Origin: Candidatus Poribacteria bacterium
GTDB taxonomy: Bacteria; Poribacteria; WGA-4E; WGA-3G
DNA: 64,000 nt
Assembly: GCA_965197475.1 (NCBI GenBank)
Contig: CBDANF010000003.1
Location: forward strand, 3,680,001 to 3,744,000
Direction: 5' to 3'
Shown: positions 55,729-60,270 of the stretch, in pieces
Numbering within the stretch: position 1 is the stretch's first letter
Layout of the letters: each line of letters starts with the position of its first letter
The notes under the pieces: generated by a model
What the model was told of the DNA's origin: nothing
What the model saw: the letters and a program-made list of their open reading frames with translations, nothing else
Database searches by the model: none
Program-made: the position numbers and the translations under genes

Positions 55729-56523
55729 CTAAGATTCATCATCAAAACTAAAAGATTTACCTGATTCAACAACAAGTTCCCTAAAATAATTTACTGCTAA
55801 TCGCAGCTGCTTTTCGGAATCTGCTCTATCAGAGTGAGTTGAAACGAGGTCAACGGGCATTTTATTGCCTTCCACATTACGTAGGGCAACATAAGCCTTT
55901 AGATATACATCTGGATGACGTTCCATCACTTTCTGCATCAGTGGTGAAACTTCCGCTTCAAACATATTTACATAAATCCGTGCGGTACTAATCTCAGCAC
56001 GGTAACGTTCGCCTATCAAGGGTTGAATATGAGTTTCGAAAATCGCTTTCATCTCGCGTGGTGGACCTGGCATCATCATAATAGTAGATTGCTTATGAGT
56101 AACACTTATGCAGGGTGCCCATCCCGCAGGATTCTGAAGTACTTGTGCTGTTTCTGGCACAGTTGCCATCTTGGTTAGTGCTTCATTAAGCGGATCGTTT
56201 TCAGACATCTCACGGCGTTTTCGGTATTCTGCCATGGTCTCTTCATTCACAACAGGTTTTGTGCCAATGAGTGATGCGACAACAGTCACGGTCATATCAT
56301 CCGGTGTTGGTCCGAGTCCTCCCGTTGTAAGAATAAGTGCTGTTTCACGTTGAATTGCACCATCCAACGCATCAGTCATCTCATCAAAATTATCGCGTAG
56401 CATAGTTACTCGGTGTAATTCCCCACCGTATTGTAGTATCTGCTGTGCAATCCAGTGGGCGTTGGTATCCTGAATTTGTCCGAGGACTAACTCAGTTCCA
56501 ATTGAAAACAGTTCTATCGCCAC
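55729..56523 (-). CDS. CinA-like molybdopterin-binding domain protein
   Basis: IGTELVLGQIQDTNA, TTGGLGPTPDDMT, MPGPPREM. Confidence 0.88.
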   Translation of the reverse strand: MAIELFSIGTELVLGQIQDTNAHWIAQQILQYGGELHRVTMLRDNFDEMTDALDGAIQRETALILTTGGLGPTPDDMTVTVVASLIGTKPVVNEETMAEYRKRREMSENDPLNEALTKMATVPETAQVLQNPAGWAPCISVTHKQSTIMMMPGPPREMKAIFETHIQPLIGERYRAEISTARIYVNMFEAEVSPLMQKVMERHPDVYLKAYVALRNVEGNKMPVDLVSTHSDRADSEKQLRLAVNYFRELVVESGKSFSFDDES

Positions 56524-56594
56524 CTAATTCTCCCTTTTACAAAACCTGTTTAAGGAACTCATACGCTCCGACACCGTAAAAACTATATCCCGTT

Positions 56595-56792
56595 TCAAAC
56601 AAGATCGAGCATCTCCGCATATTGTAACACATTTGATATATAGTTGTCTATACAATGACGTAAAACACGCTGCCATTCTTCCGCTTCTGCTACAGTCGTT
56701 GCCCGGAATTCCAATTCGCGTGGTATTTCAGCATATAATTGGTGCGAAAAATCTAAGGTGTCAAGGTATTGTTCACTGGACATCTTTTTCAC
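56595..56792 (-). pseudogene. probable truncated gene fragment (N-terminus resembling acetylxylan esterase-like hydrolases)
   Basis: LEFRATTVAEAEEWQRVLR then loss of protein-like sequence. Confidence 0.35.
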
Positions 56793-57011
56793 TTTTTAGT
56801 AACGCAATAAGTAGTTTTGGACATGATAAAATCTGTGAATTTTAATTTCTCATCTATAAGTGTTTATACAGATAATCTGATTGCAATTCATTTGTATAAT
56901 ACTGCTATTTATAGTTTGTATCAAATGACCCCATGAGTTATACTATTAGTATTCGTTAAACTAACGAGTAGATGTCCTCGGATCCCCGATAATCTATTCA
57001 TGGAGGTCAAT

Positions 57012-57812
57012 ATGAACCGCAAGAAGGATACCGCTTACGGTATCACTCGGCTCGAATCCAAGAATGCCAGAGCCGCGATTATTCAGAAGATTTCAGCAGA
57101 CTTTAATCTAATGCCTCTCGTTGCTGAAGCCTACTATAAACAGATTTCCACCTACTTTGAACAACACGCCGATGTGCACCTGACATCAGGGCAAATCTGC
57201 TACGAGGCAGTCGCCGCAGAGGAACCCGCAGGTAAACATATCGCTTTAGCGAAAAAAGTTTCCTGTCGGCTAACTCTCAATGACACAAACGCCGATCTTG
57301 AAGTCTTAGCGAATTATGGTCTCGCAGGACTCAGACGGCATCGGATCCTCCGATTGACCCAAGAAGCTTATGACCAAGATGCCTTACTGAGCTACGAGGA
57401 TTTAGCTGTATTATTAACCACCAGTCCTGCTACAGTCAAACGCGACATTCGACACTTGAAGCAGGATGGGTATTTCGTTATGACGCGCGGGACGAAACAC
57501 GACATGGGCCCCGGCACTTCTCATAAAACCCAGGTCCTGGAGTTATATTTCAAAGCCTATACCTTCACCGAAATCGAGAAAAAGACGAACCACAGCGAAC
57601 GAGCTGTCTACCGCTACTTGAAAGACTTTACACAAGTCGCTACGCTCCATCATCAAGGCTTTCCTAACGCACAGATACGCCTGATCACCCATCTATCTGA
57701 CCGGTTGATCCGCGAGTATCTCTCACTCTATGAGGAATACCAACACACAGATCGCATGACCCAACTCCTTCACCCAGAACCTGAGGACACAAAAAAGGGG
57801 GACCTCTCATGA
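57012..57812 (+). CDS. DUF1670-like protein A
   Basis: GGAGG RBS; EAYDQDALLSYEDLAVLL, TRGTKHDMGPGTSHK, TNHSERAVYRY. Confidence 0.8.
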   Translation: MNRKKDTAYGITRLESKNARAAIIQKISADFNLMPLVAEAYYKQISTYFEQHADVHLTSGQICYEAVAAEEPAGKHIALAKKVSCRLTLNDTNADLEVLANYGLAGLRRHRILRLTQEAYDQDALLSYEDLAVLLTTSPATVKRDIRHLKQDGYFVMTRGTKHDMGPGTSHKTQVLELYFKAYTFTEIEKKTNHSERAVYRYLKDFTQVATLHHQGFPNAQIRLITHLSDRLIREYLSLYEEYQHTDRMTQLLHPEPEDTKKGDLS

Positions 57813-58693
57813 GCAAACCTCTAACCCGCACGCAAATCAACGAGAAGAAATTCAGACGCATCAACGATAAGTCCCTACGACAGTTGCTCATTCACCGCTT
57901 TCTCAATGACTATGGTTATGACAAAGGCGAAGTCACTGCCACCGCCATTGTTGATGATATTCTTAAGACCGTTGAAGACTATTTCGTGATTACCCTTCCT
58001 TTGGAGAAACTCGCCACCGGCGATCAACTCCCGGATGAGCGTTTCTTGAGTTATGGACAACTCGTTTGGATGGCCGTCCCTATTGAAGAGCATCCAGAAA
58101 GAGGAAAGTCCATCGTCAAAACCCGCATGAAACCCGTCATCCTGACTTACCTCGCCGCAGAGGATATTGAATCCTTTCGCAACGGTTTCACCTCCCGGCA
58201 ATTGCGGATCAATCGCTTGGTCCGCTGGTGTCATCAAGCTTATGACCAAGGGGCATTATTGACACAACTCGACTTGGCAGTTTTGCTCAATGTCTGCGAT
58301 GCCGTTGTCTGTGATTATGTTAATGAATGGCAAAAAACCACTGGAGAACTCTTGCCCACCCGTGGCAATATCCATGACTTATCGGGGGCTATTACCCATA
58401 AGAAAGAGATCATAACCCTCTATCTTCAAGGACATCTCACCCCCAGGATTGCCGCAAAGACCAAACACTCTAAGGAGGCAGTTGACCGATACATTCGCGA
58501 TTATGAGAGCGTCAAAGTCGTTCGGAAAGCAACCGCAGATATTGATAAAATCTCACAGATTACACGACTTTCTAAACGCGTCATCTCTCAATATCTCGAC
58601 CTCATACCGCAGCACCAACTCCAAGCCATAGATGCAGACCTTGCCAATTCAGACTCAAACGATGAAGCCACTCACCAAGGAGAAGCCCAATGA
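57809..58693 (+). CDS. DUF1670-like protein B, translationally coupled paralog
   Basis: ATGA overlap; QAYDQGALLTQLDLAVLL, TRGNIHDLSGAITHK, TKHSKEAVDRY. Confidence 0.8.
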   Translation: MSKPLTRTQINEKKFRRINDKSLRQLLIHRFLNDYGYDKGEVTATAIVDDILKTVEDYFVITLPLEKLATGDQLPDERFLSYGQLVWMAVPIEEHPERGKSIVKTRMKPVILTYLAAEDIESFRNGFTSRQLRINRLVRWCHQAYDQGALLTQLDLAVLLNVCDAVVCDYVNEWQKTTGELLPTRGNIHDLSGAITHKKEIITLYLQGHLTPRIAAKTKHSKEAVDRYIRDYESVKVVRKATADIDKISQITRLSKRVISQYLDLIPQHQLQAIDADLANSDSNDEATHQGEAQ

Positions 58694-58760
58694 GACCCTA
58701 ATCCTATGTTCCCGACGAACTTTACTTCGCAAAACCGGGGCAGGTGCCTTGAAAATATGG

Positions 58761-58789
58761 TTGACAACCGCTACTGGTTTTGCTATACT
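58761..58789 (+). promoter_or_regulatory. near-consensus sigma70 promoter facing the element's right end
   Basis: TTGACA-17 bp-TATACT. Confidence 0.7.
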
Positions 58790-58795
58790 TTAGAC

Positions 58796-58900
58796 ACGTT
58801 TATCGCTAAACGCATCATTTCTCAAAGAGGATGCTCGCGATCCCAACGCAACCCACTCATCAACGATCGCTGGGAAGCCAATAAACATCAGCCTTCCAGC
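58796..58900. ncRNA. candidate structured RNA (four abutting stem-loops) in the element's right end
   Basis: stems 58797-58812, 58812-58834, 58837-58870, 58869-58900, starting at the predicted TSS. Confidence 0.4.
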
Positions 58901-59064
58901 TATCCTATGGTCATTTGATACTATTTAAGAAACGACACGATATCTTCACTTATATTACCACAATAATGGAAGAATGGCGGCGTCTAATTTCGTTATAAAA
59001 GGTTTATATCTCTATAACAGATTGTAAAAATTCAACATATAGTAATCTCAATATAGACTCTTAT

Positions 59065-60270
59065 CTACAAAGTAATGCCCAACTCCTTTGCAATTGTATA
59101 AACATCTTTATCACCACGTCCAGATAGGCATACTACGATGGTTTTGCCGTCACCAAGTTTCGGCGCAAGTTCACGTAGGTACGCAATGGCATGCGCGGAT
59201 TCTAATGCTGGAATGATTCCCTCAGTCTCCGACAACAACTGAAATCCTTCCACGGCCTCTGTATCGGTAATCGGCACATATTCCGCTCTACCAATTTCTC
59301 GATAATAACTGTGTTCCGGACCTACACCAGGGTAATCTAACCCCGCGGAAATCGAATGGGCAGGTGTTATCTGTCCATCATCTTCTTGCAATAGATAGCA
59401 CTTTGCACCGTGAAAAACACCAACACTTCCTGCAATGAGCGGTGCGGCGTGCCGTCCGCTACGGATACTCTCACCTGCTGCTTCAACACCGATAAGGCGA
59501 ACAGACTCGTCATGATAAAATGGATGGAACATACCGAGAGAATTACTGCCACCGCCAACACAGGCAACGACACAATCCGGTAAGATACCCTCCTGTTCTA
59601 AAATTTGTGCTTTCGCTTCTTCGCCGATAACAGCTTGGAAGTCTCTAACGATCATGGGGTAAGGATGCGCCCCGACAACTGAGCCGAGAAGCAAATATGT
59701 TGTGCGGACATTTGTAACCCAATCTCGGAAACAGGCATTGATGGCATCTTTGAGCGTACGTGAACCTGAATTGATAGGCACAACTTTTGTTCCCATCAAC
59801 CGCATGCGGAATACGTTGAGTGCTTGTCGTTCTATATCCTCTTCACCCATATAGACTTCGCATTCCATATCAAACTTAGCAGCGACGGTTGCTGTCGCTA
59901 CGCCGTGTTGCCCCGCACCGGTCTCGGCGATGATACGTTTTTTGCCCATCCACCGTGCAAGCAATATCTGTCCGATTGCACTGTTGATCTTGTGTGCGCC
60001 TGTATGGTTCAGGTCTTCTCTTTTAAGGTATATTTTTGCGCCACCGAGGGTTTCAGTTAACCGTTCTGCATAGTAGAGCGGATTTGGTCTCCCGACATAT
60101 TCACTGAGGTAATACCGAAATTCCTTTTGAAAATCGGAATTATCTTTGAGTGTTGTGTATGCCTCTTCCAATTCTAAAAGTGCGGGCATAAGAGTTTCGG
60201 GGACATATCTTCCACCGAACTGTCCGAAGTGTCCTGTTGCATCAGGAAGTTGTTGCATGTAGTTCTCCAT
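59065..60270 (-). CDS. trpB: tryptophan synthase beta chain
   Basis: [48 protein letters not shown]. Confidence 0.97.

Follow-up and report, generated by a model that had tools for sequence, protein, structure and literature searches.

A predicted outward promoter and a conserved palindrome at the right end of a DUF1670 insertion element of Poribacteria: a proposed promoter/operator module

The stretch of a Candidatus Poribacteria genome analysed here (64,000 nucleotides, hereafter the window) carries a non-coding segment between the second gene of an insertion element and the right end of that element, in which a promoter-like sequence is followed by four inverted repeats. What does this segment do? 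The initial annotation raised four possibilities: an RNA cofactor or guide encoded by the element, by analogy with the bridge RNAs of IS110, an antisense regulator, a leader that drives the genes only after circularisation, or a folded single-stranded DNA end. We favour, with moderate confidence, a promoter/operator module: 58761-58924 would regulate in cis at the right end of a site-specific DUF1670 element and would not be a gene for a folded RNA. The module would consist of three parts: a promoter (P_out) directed toward and across the right terminus, a leader of about 70 nt with conserved blocks, and a family-wide palindrome (58865-58904) beside the terminal inverted repeat (IR). The features concerned, in window coordinates, are these:

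56909..56910, no strand: left TT dinucleotide, from the comparison of empty REP-like sites (GAGTTTT-TT-CTTC) with occupied sites
56911..56930, plus strand: left terminal inverted repeat, ATAG-TTTG-TATCAAATGACC, from the boundaries of 18 genome copies and kept in metagenome relatives
56916..56944, plus strand: P_L, left-end promoter candidate, TTGTAT (-35, inside the left IR), 17 nt, TATACT (-10), from the TAnnnT spacing in left ends
57000..57812, plus strand: ORF1, DUF1670 protein (PF07900, 4e-62, plus HTH families), start probably at 57012 with GGAGG upstream
57809..58693, plus strand: ORF2, DUF1670 paralogue of ORF1 (PF07900, 1.2e-61), overlapping ORF1
58761..58789, plus strand: P_out, TTGACA, 17 nt, TG-n-TATACT, from promoter scan and conservation
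58796..58864, plus strand: leader, predicted to be transcribed, with conserved sequence blocks (stems 1-3) kept in alignment A1
58865..58904, no strand: imperfect palindrome (extended stem 4), arms GATCGCTGGGA / TTCCAGCTATC, present in 37 distinct right ends
58909..58924, plus strand: right terminal inverted repeat, GGTCATTTGATAC-TAT, the end of which, read on the minus strand, gives the host gene A+TAG
58925..58926, no strand: right TT dinucleotide, from the junction comparison

That the segment is the right end of a DUF1670 element, as first annotated, was confirmed by the two PF07900 matches. The window copy spans 56911-58924 (2014 bp, from ATAG to CTAT). It is one of 18 full copies, 92-100% identical, in the 5.7-Mb genome, which also holds one 5'-truncated copy and one internally deleted miniature that retains the equivalent of window positions ~58771 to the end. 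Two copies in this genome, C3:845180-847202 and C2:1160543-1162560, have the same left flank over at least 45 nt and different right flanks, which suggests a rearrangement between copies on different contigs. The left flank of one genome copy (L002:3545-4344) is itself a repeat in many copies, which matches genomes G003 and G020 at dozens of places; genomes of this genus are rich in further mobile or repeated DNA. The structure model of ORF2 (pLDDT 87.5) matches helix-turn-helix (HTH) and winged-helix DNA-binding domains only. Foldseek returned nothing for this model at E<=1e-3, the best hit of a VIA fold search was of HTH type (Z 6.4 over 49 residues, with residues 1-125 barely covered), and the sole match in a PDB sequence search was 8vd6_A ('CAP REPEAT', 6.8e-5). 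On the family matches and this model, both element proteins are HTH-only, with no recognisable catalytic fold. The DUF1670 proteins compared in alignment A2 have in common the motif LPTRGxxHDxGxxxTHK and, further C-terminal, an invariant His and Tyr. The family amounts to 1017 clusters at 50% identity, and some of its forms are ~930-950 residues long with three DUF1670 stretches. Near-identical proteins carry the source label 'Candidatus Poribacteria bacterium', and the RNA runs that contain the element are sponge metatranscriptomes. A literature search by family name (DUF1670 / PF07900) indicates that the element family appears to be undescribed; the accessible parts of the literature on insertion sequences and transposases of Poribacteria concerned unrelated work only. 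The family itself is a more remarkable object than its promoter/operator right end.

The limits of the element, ATAG...CTAT, and the 2-bp junction repeat were established because empty and occupied REP-like sites could be compared. Three related genomes (G060, G047 and G038) contain a REP-like palindrome that is found empty as GAAACCGAGTTTT-TT-CTTCAAAACTCGGTTTC (44, 43 and 29 pattern matches, respectively) and occupied as ...GAGTTTT-TT-ATAGTTTGTATC...GATACTAT-TT-CTTCAAAAC. It is in the loop of this palindrome that a sister lineage (L069-L072 and L086-L100, in these three genomes) inserts. Some of the empty copies lie in dense clusters, e.g. at ~1.895-1.898 Mb in G047. The junction dinucleotide, TT or CG, is identical on both sides in 26 of the 35 elements for which both ends were found. 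At the ends of the window copy, 58909-58921 pairs with 56918-56930 as a perfect 13-nt IR, and further copies of this repeat inside the ends are not in excess (18 matches at up to 3 mismatches versus 22 expected). Conservation of the left end is limited to ~29 nt, and no hairpin matching those of the right end is kept there. Distant high-GC pairs of DUF1670 genes are found on MAG contigs of Thermoanaerobaculia and Actinomycetota (L101, L102), with ends ...CATTTGAGCCTATTT or similar; the stretch from ORF2 to the right IR contains long imperfect palindromes whose arms measure 21-27 nt.

In the genome of the window, 16 of the 18 full copies have a homologous right flank and stand tail-to-tail with convergent genes ending in ...RKMLILK*. 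These gene ends match TIGR04183, the T9SS type A sorting domain (37.2 bits, cut-off 23). The insertion point is located after base 2 of the last sense codon, which is AA|R (Lys) here and CG|R or AG|R (Arg) in other lineages, and the left flanks ttac, ctac, tcac, ctat and ttat are the reverse complement of the third Lys base plus TAA, TAG or TGA. The element end supplies A+TAG, and therefore the host protein is unchanged, its Lys or Arg codon and its stop codon being restored. According to tblastn, 18 of the 52 T9SS-tail gene ends in this genome of a sponge symbiont are occupied by the element. At least five unoccupied T9SS-tail genes of the same genome carry the motif GTCTGAACCAGGATTT(T/A)CA 3' of the stop codon, possibly a further repeat or a terminator. 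The site of the window copy, ctat-TT-aagaa, is non-canonical and still resembles the core yTAy-TT-cAGAA; no empty counterpart of this site was recovered from relatives, whose intergenic DNA does not align.

The promoter proved to be present as annotated, with TTGACA at 58761-58766, a 17-nt spacer ending in TGc and TATACT at 58784-58789, and would start transcription near 58796. P_out scores 11/12 with an extended TG and is the best promoter-like site in 56400-59400, a region in which 11 such sites were found against 5.9 +/- 2.7 in shuffles. Over the whole 64-kb window only three sites, including P_out, are within one mismatch of TTGACA-N17-TATAAT (0.60 +/- 0.70 expected). Its conservation was examined in two sets of relatives. 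For the first, 61 related genomes were searched, 35 of which gave a match, and 47 distinct right ends were obtained. The pattern TTGnnn-N16-18-TAnnnT is present in the upstream part of 28 of them. Of these 28 ends, 24 have a spacer of exactly 17 nt, with the -10 box ending 133-140 nt before the terminus, and 24 retain the TG. The spacer sequences themselves diverge between lineages, e.g. ACCGCTACTGG..., ATCACTACCCG... and CGCGATATCC.... The 19 right ends without the pattern are those that share the terminal part only. For the second set, metagenome relatives were found from one protein and from a 4-sequence alignment. Eighty loci were fetched, 63 had a recognisable terminus and 59 were analysed, leaving out the near-duplicates L108, L113 and L152 and the doubtful L133. 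A score of at least 10/12 was found on the outward strand in 18 of the 59 right ends versus 2 on the opposite strand, and for all 14 members of the window clade (ORF2 73-91% identical) the outward score is at this level. Two of the 18, L135 and L177, score through sequence inside ORF2. In L112, L115, L117-L122 and L125-L127 the promoter is placed directly 3' of the ORF2 stop codon, with only 40-53 nt left between the end of its -10 box and the terminus. These comparisons support a functional, conserved sigma-70-type promoter pointing out of the right end. Promoters that face outward have precedents at the ends of other transposons; P_out is kept throughout one clade of a family that appears to be undescribed.

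In the integrated state P_out would be silent for ORF1 and ORF2, because it points away from them. If excision as a circle or insertion in tandem brought a right end to lie 5' of a left end, P_out would read into ORF1 and ORF2 and would boost the left-end promoter, a weak one with its -35 in the left IR. Tandem insertion is to be expected, because the right junction CTAT-TT-CAGAA recreates the target motif. As for the left-end candidate P_L, TAnnnT follows a TTGTAT-like hexamer at exactly 17 nt in 21 of 43 left ends, and in 16 out of 16 of the window clade. The annotated idea of a leader that drives the genes only after circularisation is possibly right. Neither a circle nor a tandem junction was found in the genome assembly, a type of data that drops rare forms, and no joint of right and left ends is listed among the RNA contigs described below. 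At two loci of relatives (L126 and L184) the right-end 16-mer abuts a left end across 2 nt; what lies there is an isolated 16-nt remnant rather than a complete copy upstream. Isolated remnants of the right end, 20-28 nt long and seen as short 100% matches at gene ends, are also common in relatives. In the window lineage the TATACT of both promoters is followed by similar short palindromes (56939-56965 and 58784-58812), CGTTA-aac-TAACG and CGTTTA-tcgc-TAAACG, which are absent from the G060 lineage and may represent a shared operator or 5' stem-loop. The ~137 nt from the -10 box to the end show conserved blocks with 1-3-nt indels only across ~30% divergence. This constraint exceeds the needs of a mere leader, which counts against the promoter/operator reading. 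If the right end is a promoter/operator module and not a guide RNA, the element may be switched on by end-joining, and its target specificity is to be sought in the proteins.

The palindrome beside the IR could be the operator or end-binding site of such a module. Its arms, GATnGyTGG.../...CCArCyATC, are kept in 37 distinct ends. Position 4 is found as C.T, G.T, G-C, C-G and A-T, and position 6 as C-G, T.G, T-A and C.A. Neither strand is favoured, because mispairs of the G.U type (33) and of the C.A type (19) both occur in the eight outer pairs. Symmetric change is also expected for the site of a dimeric protein. An inverted-repeat check of 15 right ends identified 13 with a repeat of at least 7 pairs, and in 4 of these 13 (L115, L119, L121 and L112) the arms bracket the -10 box. 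The palindrome would act as DNA, because arms bracketing the -10 box would leave one arm transcribed. The arms of L115, L119 and L121, GATGyCTG... (GATGTCTG...CAGACATC), are like those of stem 4 in the window; those of L112 are inverted copies of the IR motif itself, and in 7 other right ends the best repeat is the right IR with its own inverted copy. Between lineages the arms are alike over 8 nt only, at unequal distances from the IR (4 versus 10-12 nt); that the palindromes of the window and of the sister lineages are homologous is plausible. Most likely, the palindrome binds the element's own HTH proteins, either as operator or in end recognition.

How much of this right end an element needs can be judged from relatives. 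The distance from the ORF2 stop codon to the terminus ranges from 16 to 232 nt across 63 loci. In L105, both ORFs are intact (300 and 302 codons), ~14 nt separate the ORF2 stop codon from the IR, the junctions are the same TT, and the flank is a T9SS tail (25.4 bits, cut-off 23); this element is a single copy in an incomplete genome. Judging from such relatives, the right-end module appears dispensable for mechanism and target choice where the same target is used. Among 30 right-end loci from relatives, 7 have ORF2 upstream and the rest are ORF-less, keeping 53-250 nt of the right end. ORF-less, internally deleted derivatives of 370-1300 bp are common in relatives (L027, L038, L047, L049, L050), and one is found in the genome of the window (C3:94110-94561). 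Across the 18 genome copies the segment 58761-58924 is among the least variable stretches.

In the leading rival reading, P_out would act on the host. It would then give an outward transcript, antisense into the convergent host gene, and/or the palindrome would form, on the minus strand and just 3' of the restored stop codon, a hairpin that shields the element from host read-through or provides a new mRNA 3' end. Host RNA polymerase would read into the element, because it always sits between a host stop codon and a host terminator. The tail-to-tail position of 16 of the 18 full copies, the 18 occupied ends out of 52 and the strength of the minus-strand hairpin fit this reading. So do RNA-library contigs that cross the right junction into a T9SS-tail-type flank (X2 at 58931). 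However, these assembled metatranscriptome contigs (Logan) are unstranded, come without start or end mapping and possibly include DNA. They cover the element, among other stretches at 58768-58926 (X1), 58771-58919 (X2), 58768-58923 (X3) and 58537-58860 (X5). Their ends near 58768-58771 are probably sequence variants rather than transcript ends, because they coincide with the breakpoint of the internally deleted copy. Moreover, lineages without P_out are found at sites of this kind, no U-tract follows the minus-strand hairpin, and the scan predicted no terminator at this place. For an element that leaves the host reading frame intact, antisense transcription against 18 host genes would also be costly. 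We consider this reading unlikely. As to the annotated antisense regulator, a role against a host gene is possible, rather than one against the element's own genes. The predicted duplex of the candidate RNA with the ORF1 5' UTR is no better than shuffles, and that with the ORF2 start (-30.8 versus -22.1 +/- 3.1 kcal/mol, 3/200 shuffles as good) is marginal after three tests.

It is improbable, in our judgement, that P_out drives a structured non-coding RNA of ~130 nt (58796-58926) serving as cofactor, scaffold or guide for the DUF1670 proteins, in the manner of the bridge and seek RNAs of IS110/IS1111 or of TnpB right-end RNAs. The four annotated stems are indeed all present: cgttta/taaacg (stem 1, 58797-802/58807-812), gcatc/gatgc (stem 2, 58812-816/58830-834), gcgatc/gatcgc (stem 3, 58837-842/58865-870) and gctgg/ccagc (stem 4, 58869-873/58896-900), the last arm ending 8 nt before the right IR (58909-58921), as had been noted. 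As an abutting set they cannot all form in full, since base 58812 is common to stems 1 and 2 (1 nt of overlap) and 58869-70 to stems 3 and 4 (2 nt). RNAfold of 58790-58925 gives no four-hairpin layout and retains stem 2 and the extended stem 4, with a z-score of -2.29 for the plus strand (2/200 shuffles as good) and -1.54 for the minus strand (14/200). The fold of this segment is marginally better than chance and the promoter clearly above chance. The plus-strand value speaks for an RNA, as do a strong promoter of its own in a non-coding end behind the genes (the position of the seekRNA in IS1111), the length and sequence blocks kept in ORF-bearing Poribacteria lineages, proteins without a catalytic fold and site-specific insertion with a shared 2-nt core. 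ORF-less derivatives can be without the segment, as expected of a trans-acting product.

The comparison of homologous ends points the other way. RNAalifold of 31 homologous right ends yielded three trivial pairs (-0.34 kcal/mol), and no common fold was found on either strand, nor in close or distant subsets of these ends. The stems do not covary: the pairs changed on both sides number 6 versus 6.4 in shuffles (348/500 as high) and the further pair types 18 versus 19.1. In the stems 75.2% of cells pair versus 71.0% in shuffles, an excess that related sequences can show here without structure. The sole hint that the stems are conserved is one divergent genome copy that keeps stem 1 with one double change, two G-U changes and one mismatch. 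Stems 1-3 are replaced by a different small hairpin in L109 and missing in L038, and the leader is absent from sister lineages, where the predicted transcription start is ~35-46 nt from the terminus. Rfam 15 gave no match at E<=1 in 56000-60000. A small conserved ORF can be set aside as well: the ATG frame that begins at 58831, 17 codons long, is cut to 10 or 6 codons in relatives or lost altogether. The annotation had reported no convincing match of the loops to the flanks. RNA-target complementarity is within the shuffle range (longest exact matches 5-8 nt, 8-100% of shuffles as good, a measure that short split guides would escape), and the match of the candidate RNA to the left end is the IR only. 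L047 has a G060-type end at a T9SS-tail site, while the G060 copies are in REP-like sites, and relatives with 14-16-nt right ends use the same target. With no consensus fold, no robust covariation, complementarity not above shuffles and a module absent from intact relatives with the same target, the proposal of a conserved four-hairpin RNA cofactor or guide is not supported. A variant of it is that the Poribacteria lineage acquired a promoter-driven ~130-nt RNA used in transposition, as scaffold, as guide, or as a transcript that extends into the flank, takes along the sequence of the site now occupied and directs new insertions to paralogous T9SS-tail gene ends. This is quite improbable; if true, a mobile element not related to IS110 or TnpB would be assisted by RNA.

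There is a very slim chance that the stems are single-stranded DNA hairpins recognised at the end, as in IS200/IS605. A subterminal imperfect palindrome is present 20 nt from the terminus, and left flanks are often TTAC, the target of IS608. However, the element is bounded by terminal inverted repeats, its junctions show a 2-bp repeat, the TTAC-like flank (yTAy/TCAC) is the reverse complement of the third Lys base plus TAA, TAG or TGA, no matching hairpin is kept at the left end, and no HUH protein is among the family matches. The annotated folded single-stranded end of this kind is largely refuted. Finally, that promoter match and stems are chance features of a non-functional spacer is scarcely credible: the fold z-scores are modest and AT-rich DNA holds many promoter-like sites (the 11 versus 5.9 above), but hexamers, TG, spacing and position are kept across lineages despite divergent spacers, and the stretch is among the least variable of the genome copies.

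The promoter/operator reading can be placed among known systems. In insertion sequences with circular or tandem forms (the IS911/IS3, IS30, IS21 and IS110 families) a strong promoter element at the right end faces outward and serves the transposase genes only once the right and left ends have joined; their own left-end promoter is weak, with an overlap into the left IR. Here too, a promoter points outward at the right end, and the left-end promoter candidate has its -35 in the left IR. In contrast to these families, P_out is complete and not split between the IRs, at a distance of 135 nt from the end (40-53 nt in sister lineages), and no circle is present in the assembly. A split promoter of the IS3/IS911 type was considered and rejected: at a TT-spaced junction the TTGATA of the right IR would meet CAAATG 17 nt later. 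A complete promoter near the end and directed outward is also known from pOUT/RNA-OUT of IS10, ISAba1 and Bacteroides insertion sequences. RNA-OUT of IS10 overlaps the 5' end of the transposase mRNA, whereas P_out lies at the opposite end of the element from the start of the genes and outside all of them.

With IS110/IS1111 and their bridge RNA or seekRNA the element has in common a non-coding end segment beside the genes, site-specific insertion that includes REP-like palindromes, and a 2-nt core at the junctions. It differs in having no DEDD/RuvC-like recombinase (PF07900 and HTH families only), no conserved two-loop RNA structure and no guide-target match above shuffles; moreover, it has terminal inverted repeats, and its module is dispensable in relatives. 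From IS200/IS605 it is set apart by its terminal inverted repeats and 2-bp junction repeat, with no HUH/Y1 family match. In the features tested that define bridge/seek RNA systems and IS200/IS605 ends, the segment does not agree with either. In Tn7 and Mu the transposase-binding sites at the ends overlap a promoter, and the promoters read inward into the transposition genes. The ends are asymmetric there as well as here, the longer right end bearing protein-binding repeats, putative in our case, and a promoter; this likeness suggests autoregulation by an end-binding protein. P_out differs in its outward direction, and ORF-less derivatives need ~53-100 nt in cis. In its predicted working, the segment would come closest to an outward or junction promoter as known from insertion sequences, together with end-binding sites of the Tn7/Mu type.
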